Below, in pieces: positions 10-59,672 of a stretch of DNA of 64,000 nucleotides (the first letter of the stretch is position 1; every line of letters begins with the position of its first letter). This DNA is from Cyanidioschyzon merolae (Eukaryota), in assembly GCA_000091205.1 (NCBI GenBank), contig AP006489.2. The stretch is one strand, 5' to 3'. The notes under the pieces were generated by a model. It saw only the letters and a program-made list of their open reading frames with translations. It searched no databases and was not told where the DNA came from. The translations under genes and the position numbers were made by a program.

Positions 10-1346
10 CTCCATCATCCTCATATTTTTATCTTTCTTGTATATCGGATTATCTTTCTGTATTTACCGCTTTTTATTAAAGATTTTTTGTTCCATTTTT
101 TTCTATATCTTTGTTTATAGATTGCAGAATAGATCAGTGCCGGGCGTTGCTATTATAACGGATTCGATTTTGGTACAGCTTCTTAGGTATAAGGCAGGGT
201 TTTTTTTAAATAATGTGCTCTAATCTACGTAGTATTTGGAGGCAAGCTCTGCCTGCATTTTCATAGCACCTTTTTTCAAGACTCTTTTGTCACCCTGCTT
301 TGTCTCCTTAATAATAGAGTACTTTCCGGCATGCTCCTTATATCAACTCTTTTGGCTCTCTTCTTTCTAATTGATATTAGACCAAAAATTTACCATGTTA
401 TAAATCGTTGCTCTGTACTTATTAGCACCCGTTCTAGTCTTTATATCGACTATGATTTGGATGCTTTTTCTAGGGGCGAATCCTTTTCTGTAATTTTTCA
501 TGGGATTAATCATATTTCTGTTTTCATTTCTTACATGTAGTTTATTCTTGATAATCACTCTCGCTCGTTTTCTCTTCGTTTTTTCTCTCCATGTTAGGTT
601 CGCTGTCTTGTACTTGTAATTGTACGCCTTTGCTTTTTTTTGTGGGCATCATCATACCTTACGAGGTTCTAATCGGCAATTTTCATATGTTTACACTTTT
701 GATAGTGAACCTTTCCTTTATCGTTCCTGTGCTTGAGAGGAAATCTCGAGCCGCTATAAACCAATTTTGGCTTTTTCCGCCCAGCGAAAATCTGGTTAAC
801 GTATCATATACTGTAGCAATTCTCCCGCGACTTGAGCGAGTGTATCCCATTTGGGGTACAGGGTGCTTCCCTCCGATCGAATCTCGATTGCGCGCAAATC
901 CGTTCATGAGCATATCCACATACGAAACCGATAATCTCTCACTTCGAGCATATTTCGACGGATGCCTTTGGCACCTGAGAGCACCCATGGAATTCTCAAC
1001 GATCCATGCACCTGTAGAGTTGATCGCATCTTTTTCAATCGGACCGCCTCGGATGCTGTAGCCACGGTTGGTTCTTTTCTCCAGTTCATTTTTTTGACGA
1101 CAAATGTTTCTGACTGGATTTCTCTTTTGCGGAAATCCTCTCTCTGCAAGGCACTCCGCCTTCCCTATTGGTGCTAAGATTTCGTTCTTGGTCCGCATAT
1201 CAAAACAGCCTCCCCCTGGATCTTTTTCGGTTCGGAGAATCCTACTACGAATAATACTCGTAAAAAAAGCCGCAAAGTGTCTGCAAGGCATCTCAGAGTT
1301 GGTCTCCAGTATCAGCTCTCCCCCTTCTTTGCTTCGCAGCGCATTC

Positions 1347-2964
1347 TTAGCAGGCAACAGCTATAGCATTCACGCGACTATCTTTCAGAATACGTGCTGC
1401 ACTTGTCCATACGCGGTACAGTCCTTCTGCATATGGCATGATACCTTCCGTGCTGTCAGAGCCGAGCGCTGATCCCCATATCTTGCGCAAAAGTTCAACC
1501 CGCGCAGGCCACAATACAGCATGTGCCACAGTGTGCGATGCATAGGTCCCGTAGCAACTAACAAGAATTCCGTCTACCACAAGGTGCCCTGAGCGCGTCA
1601 GCGGCGCATAGAGGCCATCACTCGTAACGAGAGTGTCAATTGCCACCACGGGGTCCGGCAGGTGCGCAGCAATGTCGAATAAGGCGTCGCCTATGCGGAT
1701 ATCTTCTGCGAAAACCGCTTCACCTACAGACGTCTCCAGTTCGAGGATCTTCTGTATGTGCTGCTCTTTCTCATGTGAAAGACTCGACACAGCTGTCATT
1801 TTGCGGCCCGGGACTCTCGGGTTCTCGTTCATCCGGTACACCAGATGCTGCCTCGTCAAGCGCAGCTCCTTCCCCGAACGCGTCTTGATCAATAGGATTT
1901 CTGCTGTGGCGCGAGTCTCTTTGTGCAACCACCCCAGAACTGTGTCCTCGACCAGTCGCCCACGTGAATCGACGCCGATTACGGTCATACCCGGGCGCAA
2001 TTCGCTTATCCGCCGCGTCTTGCCAAGACCATCAATAAGCACCGAAGCACCCGCTGGGAAGCAGACCGCAGCGCCGCCACCCACAGAAACCTGTGTAACA
2101 TTTGCTGTCGGTGAAGGCGTCACTGAGACGGTAGGCGTAGGCGTTGCTGAAGTTGTCGGTGTTGGTGTCGGTGTCGGTGTAGGTGTGGGTGTGGGTGTTG
2201 GCACAACTTTCGGAGTCGAGATCGCCACGTGACTCGCTCCACTTGGCAGGATACTTGGAACGCTACTTGTAAAATTGGTAGAGATCTTCGTCACGTTGGA
2301 TACGAGCGCGGTAGGTGCTAAGATAGAGATATTGTAGCTTGCATTCACTGCTGATGTTGCGCTGAATACACGTTGAACGTCGAGGCTGCTTCTCTCGTAC
2401 CAGTCGGCGAACCGCGAGGCTATGGACACGAAGATACTATCGCAGTTATCCGACACAGTGACGTTCGCTCCAGTTCCATTCAGCTTGGTTTCTAAGTTAT
2501 CCTGGAGAACGACCGCAACATCAACACACACGGTCTTGTTCACCACACTGACCACCGCAGAGAATGCAACACCGGCTATTGCCGGGGTAGGCGTAGGTGA
2601 CGGTGTTGCCGTCGGCGTAGGTGTTGGTGTAGGTGTCGCAGTTGGCGTGGTGTCGGTGTCGCAGTTGGTGTTGGCGTCGGTGTAGGTGTCGGTGTCGCGG
2701 TTGTCGTAGGCGTAGGCGTGGTGTGCAGTTGGTGTAGGTGTCGGTGTAGGTGTCGCGGTTGCCGTAGGCGTAGGCGTTGGTGTTGCAGTCGGTGTAGGTG
2801 TCGGTGTAGGTGTCGGCGTTGCAGTTGGCGTAGGTGTTGGTGTCGGCGTTGCAGTTGGCGTAGGCGTTGGTGTCGGTGTCGGTGTCGCAGTTGGCGTAGG
2901 CGTTGGTGTCGGTGTCGGTGTCGCAGTTGGCGTAGGCGTAGGCGTTGGTGTCGCAGTTGGCGTT

Positions 2965-2999
<35 letters not shown>

Positions 3000-3354
3000 T
3001 GCAGTTGGCGTAGGCGTCGGAGTTGCAGTCGGTGTTGCAGTTGGTGTCGCAGTTGGTGTTGCCGTCGGCGTAGGCGTAGGCGTAGGCGTTGGTGTCACAG
3101 TTGGCGTTGGTGTTGCAGTTGGCGTAGGCGTTGGCGTAGATGTTGGTGTCGGTGTCGCGGTTGCCGTAGGCGTAGGCGTTGGTGTTGCAGTTGGTGTAGG
3201 TGTCGGTGTAGGTGTCGGCGTTGCAGTTGGCGTAGGCGTTGGTGTCGCAGTTGGCGTAGGTGTTGGTGTCGGCGTTGCAGTTGGCGTAGGCGTTGGTGTC
3301 GGTGTCGGTGTCGCAGTTGGCGTAGGCGTAGGCGTTGGTGTCGCAGTTGGCGTT

Positions 3355-3395
<41 letters not shown>

Positions 3396-3618
3396 GGCAG
3401 TTGGTGTTGCCGTCGGTGTCGGTGTTGCAGTTGGTGTCGCAGTTGGTGTTGGCGTCGGAGTTGCAGTCGGCGTAGGCGTAGGCGTAGGCGTTGGTGTCGC
3501 AGTTGGCGTAGGCGTTGGTGTCGGTGTTGCAGTTGGCGTAGGCGTAGGCGTTGGTGTCGCAGTTGGCGTTGGTGTTGGTGTCGGCGTCGGTGTCGGGGTT
3601 GCAGTTGGCGTAGGCGTT

Positions 3619-3671
<53 letters not shown>

Positions 3672-4026
3672 TGCAGTTGGCGTAGGCGTCGGAGTTGCAG
3701 TCGGTGTTGCAGTTGGTGTCGCAGTTGGTGTTGCCGTCGGCGTAGGCGTAGGCGTAGGCGTTGGTGTCGCAGTTGGCGTTGGTGTTGCAGTTGGCGTAGG
3801 CGTTGGCGTAGATGTTGGTGTCGGTGTCGCGGTTGCCGTAGGCGTAGGCGTTGGTGTTGCAGTTGGTGTAGGTGTCGGTGTAGGTGTCGGCGTTGCAGTT
3901 GGCGTAGGCGTTGGTGTCGCAGTTGGCGTAGGTGTTGGTGTCGGCGTTGCAGTTGGCGTAGGCGTTGGTGTCGGTGTCGGTGTCGCAGTTGGCGTAGGCG
4001 TAGGCGTTGGTGTCGCAGTTGGCGTT

Positions 4027-4061
<35 letters not shown>

Positions 4062-4892
4062 TGCAGTTGGTGTTGCCGTCGGTGTCGGTGTTGCAGTTGG
4101 TGTCGCAGTTGGTGTTGGCGTCGGAGTTGCAGTCGGCGTAGGCGTAGGCGTAGGCGTTGGTGTCGCAGTTGGCGTAGGCGTTGGTGTCGGTGTTGCTGTT
4201 GGCGTAGGCGTAGGTGTTGGTGTCGGTGTCGCGGTTGCCGTAGGCGTAGGCGTTGGTGTTGCAGTTGGTGTAGGTGTCGGTGTAGGTGTCGGCGTTGCAG
4301 TTGGCGTAGGCGTTGGTGTCGCAGTTGGCGTAGGTGTTGGTGTCGGCGTTGCAGTTGGCGTAGGCGTTGGTGTCGGTGTCGGTGTCGCAGTTGGCGTAGG
4401 CGTAGGCGTAGGTGTTGGTGTTGCCGTCGGTGTCGGTGTCGGTGTTGCAGTTGCCGTCGGTGTCGGTGTCGGTGTTGCAGTTGCCGTAGGCGTAGGTGTT
4501 GGTGTTGCCGTCGGTGTAGGCGTTGGTGTTGCCGTCGGTGTATGCGTTGGTGTTGGTGTTGGTGTCGGTGTTGCAGTTGGCGTAGGCGTAGGTGTTGGTG
4601 TTGCCGTCGGTGTCGGTGTCGGTGTTGCAGTTGCCGTCGGTGTCGGTGTCGGTGTTGCAGTTGCCGTAGGCGTAGGTGTTGGTGTTGCCGTCGGTGTATG
4701 CGTTGGTGTTGGTGTCGGTGTCGGTGTTGCAGTTGGCGTAGGCGTAGGTGTTGGTGTTGCTGTCGGTGTAGGCGTTGGCGTTGCCGTCGGTGTATGCGTT
4801 GGTGTTGGTGTTGCCGTCGGTGTTGGTGTCGGTGTTGCAGTTGGCGTAGGCGTAGGTGTTGGTGTTGCCGTCGGTGTAGGCGTTTTTGTTGC

Positions 4893-4931
<39 letters not shown>

Positions 4932-5297
4932 TGCCGTCGGTGTAGGCGTTTTTGTTGCCGTCGGTGTCGGTGTCGGTGTCGGTGTTGCCGTCGGTGTAGG
5001 CGTTTTTGTTGCCGTCGGTGTCGGTGTCGGTGTCGGTGTAGGCGTAGGCGTTGGTGTCGCAGTTGGCGTAGGCGAAGGTGTCGGTGTTGCCGTCGGCGTT
5101 GATGTTGCTGCTGCCGTAGGTTGTACGATTATCACTTTTTCCAACCAAAACATTACCAGGACGAGCATCAACATAAAGCGAAAAGCTCGTTGGTGTCGAC
5201 GGCGTGCTGTTGTAAACCGCTTCTTCTGACTTAGTGCAGTTCCTTTCGCCATACTTGAGAAGAGATATCTATTTGTAGGCTGATTCGTAGAACCCAT
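1347..5297 (-). CDS. giant Hog-type protein: N-terminal signal-anchor, ~850-aa Thr/Pro/Ala mucin-like repeat, N-glycosylation-rich spacer, C-terminal Hedgehog/intein (Hint) autoprocessing domain
   Basis: Single 1316-aa ORF. N-terminus has a hydrophobic stretch [13 protein letters not shown] long (TPTPTA)n run follows. The C-terminal 238 aa starts with the VCFPAGASV Cys nucleophile context and has a TxxH motif in RLTRQHLV. It also has [21 protein letters not shown] (compare hedgehog [21 protein letters not shown]) and [14 protein letters not shown]. Confidence 0.8.
1350..2066 (-). other. Hint/Hog autoproteolytic module (C-terminal domain of the preceding CDS)
   Basis: Hint motifs as listed above: Cys-Phe start, TxxH, and the SCYG block. 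It is followed by an ARR-like tail (about 60 aa). Confidence 0.75.
2570..5100. repeat. coding hexanucleotide tandem repeat (GGTGTY GGCGTW on the plus strand; ACNCCN, i.e. Thr-Pro, on the minus strand) with ~650-bp higher-order periodicity
   Basis: A near-identical ~400-bp block (for example starting ggtgtcggtgtcggtgtcggtgtcggtgtt gcagttggcgtaggcgtcggagttgcag) recurs at about 2990, 3640 and 4030. All six frames are open as a compositional artefact. Confidence 0.9.
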
Positions 5298-6129
5298 TCG
5301 TTCTTTAAACCAGGAACTTTTGCGCTATACGAAAGCTGGCGGGTACCGTAAGGCTTGCCGTGTTTCCACGTCATTTTCGCGCTGTGACGCGCGAACGGAG
5401 AACCTGTACATAACGCCCATTCCGACGCCGGTGTAACGGAACGGGCGGCTGCTCCTATACCTATGCACCTATAACGGACATTTTTCTCGTGACACCCATA
5501 TGACGTGTAGACACGACAGGGGGCAGCCGACGCCGCCAATTGGTGCGATCGCCACCATCGCGGTGCACGGCGTCTCGCTCTAGCCGCCGCCCTCTGTGGT
5601 ACGGCAACGCCGTTCCGCCTACGTGCAGCGGCCGCACCGGCGCTATGAGCGCCATTGCTGTCGGTTTTGGCAGGCAGTTGGCGCACACGATAGGGCGTAC
5701 GAGACGACCGGAATATCCGAGAGGATGTATAGATAATGTATCATGGAGGTAGGGGGTTGATGGATACCGAACTGCGCACTGAAAAAACACACAAAAAAAA
5801 AGTACGAAGAATAAAATGCACATAATCGGAGAACGCTGGCCTAAGTAAACGTCTTGTCCATGAAAAAATAGAATCGGGCTCGGTGGGCGGACGTTGGTGA
5901 TCAGGCAGTCGACTGACGCGATGCGTCTCTCCGTTGAAGGAAAACGCGATCCTGATCACTTGCGTGCCGCTCTACTATACAAGTTGTATTTGCGTTAGAG
6001 ACGTAGCAAAGTACAGTTTTTCAGTTCATTTGTGCTTAAAACTTCAAGAAAGTGCAGTCACGTGTTGTTTTGCAGTATGCATCAGGGGCGATTAGAGAGC
6101 ATTCTTTTTCAAAAAAAATAACTATCAAA

Positions 6130-8261
6130 AGGAATGTTGTACAAGTGCAAGTCGACGATCCTGGAGTCCCAGGGTCACCGGCTGCCAGAAAGAACAACAA
6201 AAAGTGCTGAGTCCAGAAGAAAAGGAAGAGAAAATGAAGCAAAAAGCGGCCCCAAGTCGGAGGCGGCAGGAAAGACGACTGTACGACCATATGGTGGTGA
6301 AAGCCTGCCTCCTTAAACATATCAAGGATCCCTACGGGGAAAATTGCGAAACGCTATTAGAAATCGTGTCGAGTTGCACACCATGCGTATGATAAAGGCG
6401 TCGTCAGTACAAATGAATCCGGTGAAGGAGATGTACGGAGGCGTGACACACATGGAAACAATCGAGCCTCCCGATGAGTTCTTCGATTAGACCTCTATTC
6501 GTCACCTGAAGCTCGGTACAGAGAAAGCGCGGAAGGAAAATGAGGTAGTCCACGCTCTCCATGAAAACTTCGCGGAATTCCGCTTAAAGGGTAATCGATA
6601 CAAGGGTAACCAGGCTAGCTACAAGTACGTGGCAATGAAGTACATTACGAACCTGAAGAACCATTTGAAAGAGAACCTCGAGCGGTTCATGAAACGCGCC
6701 GTGTTTGCGCTCTCCCCAGGCATCCCTCGCAAAGGAAAAGGGGCGATGATCAATGGCATCACGAAGGATCGTAAGCATAAAGATGAGATCGAATGCGTCG
6801 ACAAGAAGGCGTCAAATGAGAGCACGGATGAGGATTCCGTCATCCGCGCGGCTATACAAGAGCATCGTGCGGTACTGGGGCTGGCGAATCCAACAGAAAA
6901 GATATCATAGTTGAAAAACGATAAGGAAAGATACTATCGCCTCATCCTGCGGTATTTCGTGTTTCTGGACCGAGAGCTCGAACGCGAGGCAGAAATGAAG
7001 CTGGGTGAAGAGACAAATGAAGAGTGGGAGAGACGGAAGGCTGTCCTAATGGGGAAGCGCTTCACCGTCGTTCCATTGTCCAATATCAAGTCACATTTCG
7101 TGACTATCGACTCCAGAATCCTTCACGGCATCATGAAGGAGATCAGTCCGGAGTTCAATGTAAGGAAGATAGAGTTCACTGGCCAAAACCGGGAGACGTA
7201 CTGGAAGAACGTCTTCCATCTCAAACGTCTCAAAGTTAACAAACGAAAGGCATTGACTGGGATGATCGAAACCGATGGAGTGGCTATGTGTGTACACGAT
7301 CGGTGGTCCAACCCATAGCGTCCAGTCCCGTCCTCGATGATGCAAGAAGATGAGAAGGAGGTGGATCCTTCGACGCCGAAAGTGCATGAGAACGACTTTG
7401 TCGTTGGCGCGGACCCCGGAAACACATATATCGTTACCGACGCAGTACCCAAGCGTGCGGAAGATGGTACTGACCGCAACTTATGTCAGAAAGATACGCG
7501 TCTGTTGAGTGTCTAGAGCGGGGTACTCTCGAGGATCGGCAATCATGAATGCGAGGAAGGAAATCAAGACATGGACTGCAGAAATGAAGGATCGCCTAGA
7601 AGCTTTGAGCGAGGTGACGAGCCGAGGAGCCGGCTTTCAAGCGTTTCGGGAATTCATGCTAGTTTGTGTTGCCTACTGGGATGCGCTGTGAGAAGCGTAT
7701 ACAAAGCCTCGGTGGGCTCGTCTGCGAATGAATCTATACTGTGGGAAACCGCGGGCATTTGCCATCTTTTTCAGTCAGTTGAGCGCTTTGAAAGAGGATG
7801 AAAGTCAGAGGCTCGTACTAGCATCCGGAGCAGGACGCTGGAAGACCCAAAAAGGGATTACGCCAGCTCCAACGACAACAACATACAAAGAGTGCGCAAG
7901 GCGTTTCGTCACGATACCCGTTGATGAGTTCCGAACATCGTAAACACACCATGAGCTGGGGTGTACACTTCAGAGAGTCGAGATGGAAAAGTGCCAGAGG
8001 AGCCCCGAGGATATACAAAAGTACGGACCGCTGACGGAGGAGCAAATGGAAAGGAGGGCGACAGTTCGAGGATTGCTTGCATCGGTCAGTTCTACTAGCG
8101 GCGGCAAGAAACGTATGGAGTTTGTGAACCGAGACTTGAACGCCGCCATCAACATCAGACGGTGTGCGATGCTGGAGAGGAGACCTCCAGAGTGGACAAG
8201 AGGGTATTTTGTGGACAACCTTTCAAAGTGTTACTATATGAGAAAGAATTGCAAGCTGTAG
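6130..8261 (+). pseudogene. decayed Fanzor/TnpB-like (OrfB_IS605 / RuvC-like RNA-guided nuclease family) gene, about 700 codons, with in-frame stops and a frameshift
   Basis: Frame 2 reads through TAG codons at 6908-6910 and 7316-7318 and continues into ...[18 protein letters not shown] (RuvC-I GIDPG-like). The frame ends at TAG 7512-7514 and continues in frame 3 (7728-8261). There it reads ...TYKECARRFVTIPVDEFRTS*(TAA 7941-7943)...GC..C (zinc-finger remnant)...KKRMEFVNRDLNAAINIRRC (RuvC-III RDxNAAxNI). Confidence 0.75.
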
Positions 8262-8644
8262 CAGTTGGCTGGTCCAAAACGGCTGCGGGGCGTCTGCACC
8301 TCAGTTCCAGAAGTTTCGTCTAGGGCGGGTTTCTCGCCACTACTTTGCACCACTCGCGGGCGCGTTTTTTTCTGGAAAGGCGTTTGTTGTCGCTGCCGTC
8401 ATCCGAAATACCAAAGCCCTCCGTAGATCCTACTCGCGAAAGGCGCAGTTCTGTGCGCTCTGTATCGCTCTTGAGGCGCTGTACTTGTTATCGTCACTAT
8501 CCGCGCACTCGGTGCCACTAAGCATACTTGTATTCTTCGCTCTAGGTTTGTTCGCTGGTGAGAGTCACTCTAGCGTTCGCGCGACCTTCAGGCAGCGCTC
8601 GCTTGCAGCTTTTCGTACCTCAACGCGAACCCTAGGACTGCACC

Positions 8645-9103
8645 ATGCTTCTGCAGAAACGTCTGCTCACAGAGCTTAGAGAGCTCCGCGAAGACCCGAC
8701 AAACTTCTGCCTGGAGCCCGAGGAAGGCAACCCACTCCGGCTGCAAGGCTACCTGCGCGGACCCGCCGCTACACCTTACGAGGGAGGCTGTTTTCGCGTC
8801 GCGCTGACACTACCGCCTGCGTACCCGCTCGTGCCACCGACAGTGCGCTTTCTGACTCCAATATTTCACCCAAACATCAACTTCCGCACCGGCGAAGTTT
8901 GCCTTGACATTCTGCAGTCGGCGTGGTCGCCAGCCTGGAGCCTTGCGTCGTGTCTGAGGGCGATTCAACTGCTCCTCTCAGAGCCGGAGCCGTCGTCTCC
9001 ACTGAACTGCGACGCTGGGAACCTGCTGCGCTGTGGTGATAAACGAGGCTTCTGGTCGATGGCGCGTATGTACACCCTGCTGCTGGCCACGAGCAACGAA
9101 TGA
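8645..9103 (+). CDS. ubiquitin-conjugating enzyme E2 (UBC fold)
   Basis: 152 aa. HPN motif and catalytic Cys are present in FHPNINFRTGEVCLDILQSAWSPA. Confidence 0.85.
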   Translation: MLLQKRLLTELRELREDPTNFCLEPEEGNPLRLQGYLRGPAATPYEGGCFRVALTLPPAYPLVPPTVRFLTPIFHPNINFRTGEVCLDILQSAWSPAWSLASCLRAIQLLLSEPEPSSPLNCDAGNLLRCGDKRGFWSMARMYTLLLATSNE

Positions 9104-11164
9104 TTATACTAGGTTCATTGCGTAGGCTCGCATAACGACCGATGTGGCAGCACCGTTTCCGCAGTTGCGGATGCGCTTCCACGAAAGATGCGCTATCCAA
9201 TTGTGTACCACATCTTTGCCAGCAGCGGTGAAGGGATGCAAGAGCGTGTACGCAATAGAGCCTGTAATGGTGGGAATGGAGGCATACATCGCGTCGCGGG
9301 TGTATGTCGTACGGTGCGGCGTCCGGGCGAGACTGCATAAAAGCTCTCGTACCCGACGCGCGCTTCAGCTGCAGTCATTATGAATTCGATATCTATGAAA
9401 GTCAAGGGCACGATCGCTTCGGCCTGTAGAGTGACGCGGGGCAATGTTCATGGCAGCAGCTAGGCGCTGTCCGGGACTTGGCCAGGTTCCCGGTTGGCGC
9501 TTTGGCAGGCCTCGAGTGAGCGCGAATACCTGGGTGCGAGCGCTTTGGAGTGGAGAACTGTAATGCACAGTTCTGGAGCTGGTGCTAGGTCTTCTGAAAT
9601 CTTATTTCGTACGTTTTGTCAGAGTTTCATGAGCACACAGCAATTCAAATTTGTTTCAAAATGGCTCTAATTTGTAAGAGCCGCTCTCTATGCGAGAAAA
9701 GCTGGCGCTTACTTCATCCGTGCGGACCGCTCGACACATTCTTTCAACCAATCATGCGCTTCCGAGACGCCAGCGAGGATTCCCATGTGCTGACTCGAAC
9801 TGCGTCAAAACGTGTGCCATTGCCTCCTTTTTTGGTTACGAATAGCCTCGCATTGATGATTCCAATAGCTGCCCAGAAAGAAGCGCATGGGGAGCACATT
9901 GCTAACTACCTGCCATTTGACAACCGATGAGCATAGTAAGCAGCACGACGACGAGCTGCAGCTTTGACAAGGATTTCATAGAATCTTGAACAAAAGTGTT
10001 CGCACGGTACCGCAAAATGTCACAGCTTATCCACATTATCCAATGACCTTATACCTCTATCACGGAAAGCCAAACAGTTTACCTACCTCGTAACCAGACA
10101 AATCGGTACTCCTGTGGCCTCAGGCGATCCGCTGCATAGCACGACTCTAGCGTCGAGTCGGATACCAAGTACAGAGAGCCACATCCTGAGATAGCCTGAC
10201 ATCAACCATGATACAGTTTTGCGTAGCGGGGATGCTGTCGCGCCCTTGCAAGGCGTTGCAATGATGCGGATTCGCGTCGCAGTCTAGCGGCTGCTTATCA
10301 TCTCAGTCAAACGAGCAACGAGGTGTCATGGCAAGTGCGCGTCTCTGGACATGTCGCGATCCAAAAGGCACAACTCCGAGGGCCGCAAGATACGCATTTC
10401 ATCCATCAAGCTCCAGCCTGGAGTTTGCTATCATGCTCGCATCCAAGTATCGCATACACGAGGAACGTCATACACTTAGGATCTTAAGAGAACCCAACTG
10501 ATGCGGATACATTGCGCAGCAGATTACAGAACTGCATGACATGCTTTTCCATAGACTAGAAGCGTGTAGCGCTATGGCTCCAAACGCATCATCTTCCGCA
10601 CGGCTTGTGCGGCCGGTTCCTATGGATTCCCATTTTCTATTGTGCGAACGCCGCTTAGAGCACGGCTTTTACGGATATACATCCACGGGCACGCCAAGTA
10701 TCCATCGATCGATCGGTCGATCACGAGGGCGAACACAAGTCGTCCATCAGAGCATGGCCGCACTGTACCAGCAGCGAGTTGCTGCTCGTCTATGACGGTC
10801 CAGACATCCTTTCGTGTCCGCGTACGCTATTCAATAGCATAAATTGAGACTAGTTCTGCAACGGACCTCGCGGAGCGTGCCACTGCAGATGTTCAGATCG
10901 TACACAATACAAGGATAACCCTTCTGCGTCTGGAGCTGCGTCAAACTACTGCTGGAACGCCGAGCCCCTGCATTCCATCGTTATACACCAGGGTCTCGAG
11001 CCTGCTCCCGAGCATGCGCTGCTTTGCAAGTGCGACAACATTCCTTCAACACTGCTAGGGCACAGAGAGTGAGAGCAGGTCAGGCTCTGACACAAACAAC
11101 CTCCGACAGCTCCTCAGGTTTCAAGCACCTCACATGTCCGTAACCTCGCGGACACCGATCGGCA

Positions 11165-11959
11165 CTATACCTGCTGTGCGAGCTCGTCTCGGAGACGACG
11201 AACCTCAGACTTGAGGCTCAAGTCCATGAACTTGTCGCCGAGCTGCACGGTGAAGCCTCCAATGAGGTCCCGATCAATCCTTGTGATCAGATCAACACGG
11301 GCATCCGGCATATCCGGATAAAAGCGTCGCTGCAGCCGCTGGCGCAAAAGAGCCAGCTGCCACTCTGTAAGCGGCACTGCACTCGTAACGACTGCCTGCG
11401 TTGAGCCCCGCTGCGCAGCGATCACAGACTGGAACGAATGCAGCACCTGCGACACGTGACTCAAGCGCCGGTTATCCGCAAGTAGATCAAGAAGTCTGCG
11501 CACAAAGACTGTTTGCACACCTGCGGCGTCAAGTAGCTTCTCGAGAGCACGCTGCTTCGCTACCTGCGAGCGCGTCGGATCCCGAAGAAACTCTTCGATC
11601 CGGGGATTCTCTCGCAGGAGACGCTCGAGCGCGTCAACGTCACGGTGGACTTCGTTCAGTTGGTTCGCCTTCATCGCGACCCGCAGCAACGAGCCCGCAT
11701 AGCGACCGGCAACACCCGTCAACTGCTTTGTCGCGGCGACTGCGCTGTTGGCGTCAGCGGAAGCCGCCGACCCAGCGCTCGTTGCCAGTCGTCTCCAGTA
11801 CGCGGCACCGTATCTCGCAAGCAGTCCCAGGTTTGATCGTACCATGACGGCGGATAACCAGGCTCGTTCCCGAGCACCGACGCTGTAGCACCCGGTTTCC
11901 GAGTTTCTCGTTGCCGGTCGCTGGTAGCCTGTAGCTGACGCTTCAACGCTGGTGCGCAC
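11165..11959 (-). CDS. mitochondrial ATP synthase OSCP (F1Fo delta/OSCP family) with presequence
   Basis: Resembles the OSCP/AtpH family along its length: GRYAGSLLRVAMKANQLNEV ... AVVTSAVPLTEWQLALLRQRL ... LITRIDRDLIGGFTVQLGDKFMDLSLKSEVRRL. The N-terminus is Arg/Ser/Ala-rich. The true start may be an internal Met. Confidence 0.8.
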   Translation of the reverse strand: MRTSVEASATGYQRPATRNSETGCYSVGARERAWLSAVMVRSNLGLLARYGAAYWRRLATSAGSAASADANSAVAATKQLTGVAGRYAGSLLRVAMKANQLNEVHRDVDALERLLRENPRIEEFLRDPTRSQVAKQRALEKLLDAAGVQTVFVRRLLDLLADNRRLSHVSQVLHSFQSVIAAQRGSTQAVVTSAVPLTEWQLALLRQRLQRRFYPDMPDARVDLITRIDRDLIGGFTVQLGDKFMDLSLKSEVRRLRDELAQQV

Positions 11960-12894
11960 TGCGCGCCGCTACTGTTTGATCGACGCGCTCGAACGAAGAC
12001 GGAGCGCTGAGCGTCATAAACTGATGTCTCAGGTACGCGAAAGTGCACTCGACTTGAGACGTTGTGGAAGCACCTGTTGACTTGTCTATTGCTCTGGAAA
12101 GTGCCTGCTACGTCCTCGAAGTGAGTTGTTCGTAATATTTTGTAAAGCATTGCGATGAGGAATAGGCGATGAGGATGCAAGGCAGCAACCGCTTCATTCT
12201 GAAGAGACTGAAGCATAGAAGGAATCGATTTCATATTGCGTACGCGTTTTGAAACCCTTTACTTTATGATGATTCTGCGGTGACCGTTGTGCTCGAATCA
12301 CTGCATCTATTGCACAACAAATGGCGCGCATTTTAGGTACGGATGCAGCATTGCCTGATATCACGGAAGGCTTCTCGTGTGCTAAGGATCACGCAGCAGC
12401 CGGTAATCTCCTTCTAGATCGATCACGACGCGCGTTCCGTACTAGGGTGTCGGAGCCCTTTTGCTATTTCGTAGCGGATCCACACAAGTGGACCATGATG
12501 ATGATACAGTGTGCGCACTGCACACGCTAGCCAGACTGCCTGCTGCGCTCTTGCGCTGCCTGCAAGCACACAGAAAGCCCTCAATCATTGACAGCGGCAA
12601 CGCTGTGACCCACAAAAAGACCAATCAAGAAATTCTGAAACCTATGAACACCGGTAAGCGTATGGTGGTCGCTTTCCAGGTCGAGCGCATTTATCGCATC
12701 ATAAAAAGCGCTCCATAGATTCCATCGATGTAGCGCTCTGGAGTTCTCAGCAATGAACACGAAAGAAGCATCGATGGGCGACACGCATGTCACGCGCGTC
12801 ACGCGATGCGAGTCGAAAGCCGCGGAGGTGCCGCAGCGCTGCGCACTTTTTCGAAGCACCAGTGCAAACGCTTCTGCGTTTACGTGCCTGCTAA

Positions 12895-58680: not shown

Positions 58681-59672
58681 AGGAAATGCCGTGCACGCAG
58701 CGTCCTTCCCATGGCCGTTATGTACAGTATGATTCATGTTAATTGTTTTAAGTGGACAAGTCTTGACACATGCCAGTGTTCTCCAACCGTGCGCTTCCTA
58801 TCAGCGCGCGGTGAAGCATCGCTCGATTCACCTACTTCCAAGTTCCATAACCCTTACCTCTTCTTGGATATACTAGCCGCTTCATACGTTCTATCGTTCG
58901 CCGCGTGCCTGCCCTGCTGCATCTGGAATAGCGATTATAGTGCCGGTGCGGTCGTAGCACGGTTACGGAACGGCGTTGCAGTTCCACAGAGGGCGTCGGC
59001 GCGAGAGTATACATGAATATCCACACACAGACGCCTCTCAGCTATTCTTGACCGGCCGACTTCTATCGGTTTCAGTTTCTGCTAGAACACTTCCAGCTTG
59101 AGAGGCTGCACCACAAAACTCGATCGCGACAGCTCCTCGGATGTCGTCTTCAACACTGCATATCGTCGGATATTGATAGCGGCGTCAAAGTCTCGGTTCA
59201 CGAATTCCGTCTGTTCATTGGCTCAGGTGGGACTCAACAAAGCAAGGATTCCTAGAACTCGCGCCTTCTGTGCAAGCAAGGCCTCGTCATCGCACCGTCG
59301 GGAAGCACCTGTTGACGCCAATCTCCCCTCTTGTTCTTCGTATTCTTTTTCACTTGCTCTTCTTCGCTCGATGGTATGCGAGAGGAGGATTGTTTTCGTT
59401 TTTCCTTTCGCGGCAGCCGGCGACAGCGGGCCCCCAGGATCCCTGCCGTCCACGCCCGTTCCTTTCCCTTGAATTTTATTTCTCCAAATGAAAGCACTTT
59501 GAGCACATCTGCTGTACGCTGCGAGAAAGTACTTGATGACATGCACCCGGGTCTGAAACACATTTGAGTTGAACGACGGTAAGATTCATATGCAACGCTA
59601 AATTTTTTGCACCGATCCCGCCTCAAGCTATTTCTTCCGAACGTTTCCTACGATGCACAGTATAATTATTAT

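Follow-up and report, generated by a model that had tools for sequence, protein, structure and literature searches.

The DNA considered here is a stretch of 64,000 nucleotides from Cyanidioschyzon merolae (GenBank assembly GCA_000091205.1, contig AP006489.2), hereafter referred to as the window, in which a degenerate gene for a Fanzor/TnpB-like RNA-guided nuclease had been recognised from the letters of the sequence. The window opens with CCCCCCATT, the reverse complement of AATGGGGGG, i.e., one unit of the telomere repeat present at all 40 C. merolae chromosome ends (Nozaki et al. 2007, PMC1955436). Moreover, the open reading frame (ORF) at 8645-9100, located just 3' of the element and coding for a ubiquitin-conjugating E2 protein, matches BAM79538.1/XP_005535824.1 of C. 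merolae strain 10D at every residue. The telomere unit and the E2 identity show the window to be the left terminus of a chromosome of C. merolae 10D; the element lies at about 6 kb from this end, as the original prediction had supposed, and its host is that of the CMe-1A repeat family. The element itself, located on the plus strand at 5876-8382, is one of the many dispersed and decayed copies of CMe-1A and once encoded a Fanzor1 nuclease, a reading to which we assign a probability of about 95%.

The 3169-bp CMe-1A consensus and the 734-amino acid (aa) CMe-1 protein, both retrieved from the supplementary files of Bao and Jurka (2013), were used as the reference. The decayed repeat body (5876-8382, plus strand) was recovered by three alignments: blastn joined consensus positions 671-3169 to window positions 5899-8382 (82.2% identity, 2506 columns), nhmmer joined consensus 649-3169 to window 5876-8382 (E = 0), and the global alignment of the window copy to the consensus gave an identity of 81%. 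About 150 copies of CMe-1A, each about 80% identical to a consensus of about 3 kb, have been described in C. merolae; they are devoid of terminal inverted repeats (TIRs), their target-site duplications (TSDs) are undetermined, and they encode the Fanzor1 protein CMe-1, some of them being intact (Bao and Jurka 2013, PMC3627910). The family was therefore already known, the repeat dating from a 2007 publication and its Fanzor1 assignment from 2013, and the copy described here is an ordinary member of it. The 2007 report concerns 253 copies of a 3.2-kb interspersed repeat, which is transcribed, represents about 5% of the C. merolae genome and harbors a truncated ORF with weak similarity to the white spot syndrome virus protein WSV486 (Nozaki et al. 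2007, PMC1955436). According to that report truncation affects all copies, which disagrees with the intact ones mentioned in 2013. The same virus carries a Fanzor1 in the table of Bao and Jurka (2013, PMC3627910). Since size, abundance and dispersed distribution agree, and since the truncated ORF resembles a protein of a virus for which a Fanzor1 is listed, we infer that the 253-copy repeat and CMe-1A are the same repeat.

The ancestral Fanzor1 (CMe-1) reading frame, now broken, extended from 6139 to 8323 on the plus strand and terminated with the TAG codon at 8321-8323, i.e., beyond position 8261, up to which it had initially been translated. The search with the CMe-1 protein (tblastn) retrieved it as segments placed in frames 3, 2, 3 and 2, showing 61-81% identity. 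The stop-masked translation matched 60 database proteins, the best of which, P0001 (752 aa), gave an E value of 4e-280 and 60% identity over 94% of the query. The existence of 60 homologues, together with the 2.5-kb alignment to the published consensus, places the protein-like signal far beyond chance.

The lesions were mapped by comparing the window copy with the consensus ORF codon by codon. The start codon has been lost, the ancestral ATG at 6139-6141 being now GTA, while the ATG at 6134 belongs to a different frame. Four deletions shift the frame (1 bp near 6188, 1 bp near 6343, 2 bp near 7509 and 1 bp near 8211), instead of the single frameshift noticed at first, and two other deletions are in frame (3 bp near 6244 and 12 bp near 7335). 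In addition, five nonsense substitutions are present, i.e., AAG>TAG at 6488, GAG>TAG at 6908, GAT>TAG at 7316, TGG>TGA at 7689 and TAT>TAA at 7941. Three of the four stops listed in the original prediction (6908, 7316 and 7941) are thus in frame, whereas the TAG at 7512 is out of frame, being the product of the 2-bp deletion near 7509; the stops at 6488 and 7689 had been missed. The TAA at 7941-7943 had been thought to fall on the conserved Lys of a TSK block; the ancestral codon was instead that of a Tyr (TAT), the relatives reading TSY or TTY at this position. With a lost start, four frameshifts and five nonsense codons in place of an intact ORF, the window copy is a pseudogene of the family, dead and non-functional. 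That it is a decayed copy of a nuclease gene had been correctly seen, the decay being heavier than described.

A unit of 75-80 bp coding for KHEEKKEADPATQEVQENDFVV is located just upstream of the RuvC-I motif (consensus 2117-2196, window ~7336-7411). Across the 72 related metagenome loci retrieved using P0001 as a query (L001-L072), this unit is tandemly repeated 1 to 6 times, and it represents a coding minisatellite; several copies of it are embedded in P0001 and just one, with a 12-bp deletion, in the window.

The three nuclease motifs of the original prediction are present in the order in which they had been given, at 7397-7441, 7881-7940 and 8121-8156, all on the plus strand. The RuvC-I motif (7397-7441, frame 2) is of the GxDPG type (GADPG) and its Asp codon is at 7412-7414. 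The canonical RuvC-II strand site, identified at 7812-7841 from the family alignment and the translation, reads LVLASGAGRW (VVAYGAGRW in the consensus), with a Gly in the place of the Glu. The block harboring the relocated RuvC-II Glu extends from 7881 to 7943 (frame 3); it comprises TYKECARRFVTIPVDEFRTS (7881-7940), with the Glu codon at 7926-7928, and then the TAA at 7941-7943. Lastly, the RuvC-III motif FVNRDLNAAINI (8121-8156, frame 3) has its Asp codon at 8133-8135. The alignment of 20 relatives places the corresponding residues at D484, G623, E656 and D725 in the numbering of P0001, with the two Asp and the Glu nearly invariant and the Glu (VDEF) located 33 residues past the Gly (AYG). 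This D..G..E..D layout is that of the rearranged catalytic site of Fanzors, in which a Gly or Pro takes the place of the canonical RuvC-II Glu and the alternative Glu is about 45 residues downstream (PMC10530073); the codons for the first Asp, the relocated Glu and the second Asp begin, in the window, at 7412, 7926 and 8133, respectively.

The assignment to Fanzor1 is based on profiles derived from the homologues, on a fold search and on the published consensus. The search of the chains deposited in the PDB with a single sequence gave only noise; the profile of the 20 relatives matched SpuFz1 (8GKH, E 8.7e-16), PpFz1 of Parasitella (5.8e-15) and GtFz1 of Guillardia (5.9e-8). An AlphaFold2 model was obtained for P0001, the closest near-intact relative, sharing 60% identity with the locus (predicted local distance difference test, pLDDT, 73.3; predicted template modelling score, pTM, 0.59), and was compared with the PDB using Foldseek. 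The top seven structures were all Fanzor1 (E 3e-15 to 1.7e-11, probability 1.0), while Fanzor2 and Cas12 structures appeared only at E >= 0.02. The model predicts a TnpB/Cas12-type fold with a split RuvC domain for the relative P0001 and not for the broken locus itself. As a whole, the identity with the consensus, the profile matches to Fanzor1 and the fold matches to Fanzor1 only uphold the Fanzor/TnpB-like reading first put forward, and the sequence and the modelled relative support the view that the locus is a decayed gene for a Fanzor1-type (TnpB-like) nuclease. By analogy with SpuFz1, GtFz1 and PpFz1, the active ancestor would have been an RNA-guided endonuclease of double-stranded DNA belonging to the TnpB/Cas12 lineage. 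Its single RuvC site would have been formed by the Asp of GADPG, the relocated Glu of VDEF and the Asp of NRD; in this ancestral state, the protein would have been guided by a non-coding RNA whose transcription unit was the 3' end of the element.

Some observations weigh against this picture. Firstly, the Pfam and NCBIfam libraries did not give any significant match with the stop-masked translation: the Cas12f1-like TNB domain (PF07282) reached an E value of 0.19, touching only the NRDLNAAINI stretch of the RuvC-III motif, and NCBIfam returned none. Secondly, the zinc-ribbon cysteines typical of Fanzor1 and TnpB (CxxC...CxxC between RuvC-II and RuvC-III) are absent; the position corresponds to 7935-8120 of the window, and the CMe-1 clade reads TSYTHHELGC...LLALVS where SpuFz1 reads CxxC...CxxxxC. 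Thirdly, the P0001 model is of moderate quality (pLDDT 73, TM score 0.4-0.5). Lastly, no trace of the DDE_3 transposase that accompanies some relatives (see below) was found in the window or in the consensus by tblastn with three DDE_3 proteins from these relatives, and no TIRs exist at the ends of the element; a Tc1/mariner-type carrier of Fanzor1 possesses both features, and the window copy neither.

The first two points are linked to each other. Also the intact CMe-1A consensus protein remains below significance in Pfam (E 0.52), because the zinc-ribbon cysteines are missing from the CMe-1 clade, so that the near-silence of the libraries characterises the clade and is not an effect of decay; this same CMe-1 was nevertheless classified as Fanzor1 by Bao and Jurka (2013, PMC3627910). 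More distant relatives have a partial set (THH...WC...H), P0052 keeps CTSC, and the distant P0060 alone retains the zinc-ribbon cysteines and passes PF07282. The idea that a lack of profile matches would speak against the nuclease would therefore misfire, the E values being 0.19 for the window copy and 0.52 for the intact consensus. More generally, this Fanzor1 clade, which has no zinc ribbon, escapes Pfam-style profile searches also where its ORF is intact.

Among the related metagenome loci, a near-complete ORF was found in 1 of 72 (L001 only). One of them, retrieved from a hot-spring metagenome (L016), is collinear with positions 4695-12179 of the window, with 96.4% identity over 7.5 kb and an identical E2 protein; it could be orthologous, deriving from a close relative, or else a paralogue of subtelomeric location. 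The two copies share the lost start, the deletions at 6188 and 6343, and the stops at 6488, 7689 and 7941. On the other hand, L016 keeps GAG at 6908, GAT at 7316 and the bases deleted in the window near 7509 and 8211, and it has a private lesion, a 1-bp deletion at 8178. The two elements differ by 103 substitutions in 2845 nt, i.e., 3.6%, while the value for the flanks is about 2.5% (by subtraction from the alignment totals), which is what is expected from neutral drift. The window copy is still gathering lesions neutrally.

A second and more damaged CMe-1A relic is present within the window on the minus strand (58764-59600). Its middle part is deleted, so that it keeps consensus 764-1060 (59600..59287) and 2809-3088 (59298..59023), and its RuvC-III region is still matched by tblastn at 42-57% identity.

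At its 5' side, the body of the first copy begins with a non-coding leader (5876-6138, plus strand) aligned to consensus 649-905; where the consensus has TATATAG (at ~641-647), the window has TAGAATC. The 5' 635 bp of CMe-1A, a module in common with the non-autonomous TE-N2_CMe (Bao and Jurka 2013, PMC3627910), are not found in direct orientation. A repeat of about 290 bp derived from this module is located instead on the minus strand at 5578-5868, head-to-head with the body, and only consensus 5-257 is represented in it (nhmmer, window 5858..5576, E 2.5e-25). The edge of this repeat at 5578 is sharp and common to more than 15 loci, and the same head-to-head architecture and spacing are found, with different 3' flanks, in other copies (L013, L019, L022, L030 and L052/L055). 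This arrangement is a recurrent structural variant of the family rather than a local accident, and the membership of the window copy is not in doubt.

The ~290-bp repeat, which corresponds to the first ~257 bp of CMe-1A/TE-N2_CMe, acts as a unit of its own. It is also present at 58831-59000 (plus strand), and the second relic adjoins a copy of it (consensus 15-256 at 58764-59006, plus strand). In independent loci it is repeatedly placed head-to-head with the CMe-1A body, at a constant distance of about 20 bp from its start, and in L019, L032, L004 and L031 it is also located just downstream of the 3' ends of CMe-1A.

At the opposite side, the 3' non-coding tail (8324-8382, plus strand) reaches the published end of the consensus. 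Window position 8382 corresponds to consensus position 3169 (...GAAAGGCG), a terminus common to dozens of metagenome copies, and the last 20 nt (8363-8382, CGTTTTTTTCTGGAAAGGCG) are still able to form a terminal hairpin. The element possibly continues for about 20 nt, TTTGTTGTCGCTGCCGTCATCC (8383-8404, plus strand), which are also found past the consensus end at other loci: the segment following 8382 (TTTGTTGTCGCTGCCGTC...) is common to L027, L022 and L010, after which the flanks diverge. The true end of this CMe-1A subfamily may therefore be near 8404; the extension could represent this genuine terminus, an insertion target common to the copies or a segment resembling a guide. In some copies, it is complementary to GGCGGCAGCG, located just upstream of the terminal hairpin. 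Neither TIRs, for which a search of the flanks had been suggested, nor direct repeats were detected at the ends of the window copy, where only short, chance-like pairs exist. TTTGTT was considered as a target-site duplication and dropped, since the 5' flank of the window copy does not match it. A Helitron-like reading, suggested by the 3' hairpin, the T-rich flank and the frequent 5' truncations, was not adopted, no Rep/Hel protein having been seen.

In the characterised Fanzors, the guide RNA derives from the 3' non-coding region abutting the right end of the element (PMC10432273, PMC10530073). The last 132 nt of the CMe-1A consensus fold more stably than all 200 shuffles (z -3.4, 0/200 as stable), forming a long stem between CAGTAGTGG, inside the end of the ORF, and CCACTACTG, past the stop, in addition to two hairpins, one inner and one terminal. 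For the near-intact L001, the z of the 3' end is -2.0. A perfect hairpin of 8-10 bp ending exactly at the boundary is present in about 20 of 46 copies, in two versions that are one G-C/U-A exchange apart; as the scan with free shifts is biased by the choice of the best among many registers, only the shift-0 cases were relied on. It is plausible that the ancestral CMe-1A element had a structured 3' RNA, for which this fold is a candidate only.

The situation at the window copy is different, since no recognisable 3' RNA structure is left. Its 3' 150 nt fold no better than shuffles (z +0.37), and Rfam, searched at a permissive threshold over window 5300-8700, gave no match. RNAalifold on 46 3' ends returned essentially no consensus structure (about -3 kcal/mol), and counting the pairs compatible with the structure derived from the consensus in the same copies gave 81% of paired cells, with no excess over shuffles (166/500) and no covariation, a null result that is expected if the copies decay neutrally after insertion. 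The vestigial omega-RNA scaffold imagined at 8200-8400 is accordingly unsupported by the fold, Rfam, RNAalifold and covariation results alike.

These data also bear on the possibility that only the protein part is dead, and that the 3' end (8200-8404) is a "ghost" omega-RNA locus guiding intact Fanzor1 copies in trans. Ghost loci with an omega-RNA and no protein are known in S. punctatus (PMC10432273), and such an interpretation would agree with the 8-bp hairpin that the terminal 20 nt still form at the shared boundary, as well as with the stability of the consensus and L001 3' ends. However, in the window copy the long CAGTAGTGG/CCACTACTG stem is disrupted and the fold signal is gone, the searches over the 46 copies are negative, and between the window copy and L016 the 3' region has changed at the same pace as the remainder of the element, so that a ghost locus appears very improbable.

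The possibility that the locus is still a working gene, in which introns, programmed frameshifting or readthrough would overcome the stops and the shifts of frame, can practically be set aside. The repeat family is reported to be transcribed (PMC1955436) and the three catalytic codons are intact; however, nine disabling lesions and the lost ATG are scattered along the frame, and they are not conserved, L016 having sense codons at 6908 and 7316 and different indels at ~7507, 8178 and 8212, and the other CMe-1A copies carrying other lesions. Furthermore, the element diverges from L016 more than its flanks do, and introns exist in only 0.5% of C. merolae genes (PMC1955436).

It is equally hard to believe that the gene is a bacterial-type TnpB of the IS200/IS605 or IS607 kind acquired by horizontal transfer: even though TnpB is the ancestor of the Fanzors and the only Pfam model to touch the translation is the Cas12f1-like TNB domain, Fanzor1 proteins account for all of the best matches in both sequence and fold (the structures of Fanzor2, Cas12f and other Cas12 proteins having E >= 0.02), the ancestral ORF was 734 aa long with a basic N-terminus resembling a nuclear localisation signal, the RuvC-II Glu is relocated, neither TnpA nor a serine recombinase is encoded between the Hint-domain ORF and the E2 gene, and the element is repeated in many copies in the nuclear genome of a eukaryote (PMC3627910, PMC1955436).

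The preferred reading, a decayed CMe-1A copy, leaves room for a proposal on the origin of the family. In the window, no ORF except the broken Fanzor frame is located between the Hint-domain ORF, ending at 5297, and the E2 ORF, starting at 8645; hence, neither TnpA nor a serine recombinase, the partner for which a search had been suggested earlier, nor any cargo is encoded there. A partner of a different type is found in P0049 (699 aa; 37% identity over 96% of the query) and P0054 (630 aa; 31% over 99%), which are among the nearest intact full-length relatives. Each of the two is encoded directly downstream of a DDE_3 transposase gene (loci L073, 3674-6411, and L074-L077). The neighbour of P0054 has a faint match to HTH_Tnp_Tc3_2, pointing to the Tc1/mariner type, and in L074 and L075 an imperfect inverted repeat of 30 nt brackets the DDE_3 and Fanzor1 genes. 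Remnants of DDE_3 genes also exist near CMe-1A copies on Cyanidioschyzon-like contigs (L010, L056/L058, L025/L070 and L046/L050); two of these loci, L070 and L025, have the remnant about 320 bp past a copy of the 5' module, with both on the same strand. A class of mariner-borne Fanzor1 elements is known, e.g., PUl-1/2 of Pythium (Bao and Jurka 2013, PMC3627910), and the DDE_3 partners of the relatives fit this class, which suggests that CMe-1A is a derivative that has no transposase. Most likely, then, CMe-1A is a non-autonomous derivative of a Tc1/mariner-type (DDE_3) transposon, the link being indirect.

A bolder proposal, which we regard as improbable, would combine these elements: CMe-1A would be a deletion derivative of a DDE_3 Fanzor1 transposon, the CAGTAGTGG/CCACTACTG stem and the 8-10 bp hairpin would be the scaffold of a red-algal omega-RNA, and the ~20 nt past the published end, shared by several independent copies, would be a common guide or target. 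If this were true, RNA-guided homing to a T-rich target present many times would have contributed to the spread of CMe-1A, and its recurrent juxtaposition with the ~290-bp 5'-module repeat would reflect RNA-guided targeting.

Concerning the other genes of this chromosome end, the ubiquitin-conjugating E2 gene (8645-9103, plus strand) is peroxin-4-like; strain 10D also possesses a paralogue of it, BAM79402.1, with a single residue changed. The paralogue agrees with the duplicated subtelomeric blocks with an E2 gene described in C. merolae (Nozaki et al. 2007, PMC1955436), and the CMe-1A pseudogene may have been duplicated along with the E2 gene at another chromosome end. On the other side of the element, the minus strand harbors an ORF of 1316 aa with a Hint domain (1347-5297; PF01079, E 3.5e-38), in which Thr-Pro/Ala-Thr-Pro repeats occupy about 1000 residues and precede the Hint (Hedgehog/intein-type) module, located at the C-terminus. 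The Thr-Pro repeat gives rise to an extreme GC skew and AT skew at 2-5 kb. Positions 1-1000, after the single telomere unit, are AT-rich (GC 0.39 vs. ~0.55 elsewhere), with a pyrimidine-rich plus strand.

From a practical viewpoint, the locus should be annotated or masked as a CMe-1A pseudogene and not as a gene. Its discovery value is little, given that the family, its copy number and its Fanzor1 identity have been published and that the present copy is inert. The comparison offers, at the same time, leads on the omega-RNA and the mobilisation of red-algal Fanzor1, i.e., the DDE_3 partner of the nearest intact relatives, the stable fold at the consensus 3' end and the head-to-head module that recurs among the loci.

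With respect to known systems, the TnpB proteins of IS200/IS605 and IS607 share with the locus the RuvC nuclease ancestry and the expected placement of the guide RNA at the 3' end; they are, however, prokaryotic proteins of about 400 aa, with a mostly canonical RuvC-II Glu and a TnpA partner, none of which is true here. The Tc1/mariner-type carriers of Fanzor1 are closer, in that P0049 and P0054 have the same zinc-finger-poor TxYTHHE motif as the CMe-1 clade, but they have the DDE_3 gene immediately upstream and imperfect TIRs (L074/L075), and CMe-1A and the window copy have neither. SpuFz1, PpFz1 and GtFz1 resemble the family in profile and fold, in the D..(G)..E..D layout, in the position of the Glu within an xDEaxTS block and in size (600-750 aa), whereas the identity is 12-14%, the CMe-1 clade is without zinc-ribbon ligands and the present copy is a pseudogene. 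As for the repeat of Nozaki et al. (2007), its relationship with TnpB/Fanzor was not recognised at that time. The closest counterpart is the CMe-1A consensus, with which the window copy has in common the host species, the ORF with its motifs, the ~80% level of identity found among its copies and the lack of TIRs. It differs from it in the absence of the direct-orientation 5' 635-bp module, replaced by about 290 bp inverted at the 5' end, and in the ORF, which is broken here and intact in some copies according to Bao and Jurka; past the published 3' end, about 20 nt of the window copy are shared with some other copies.

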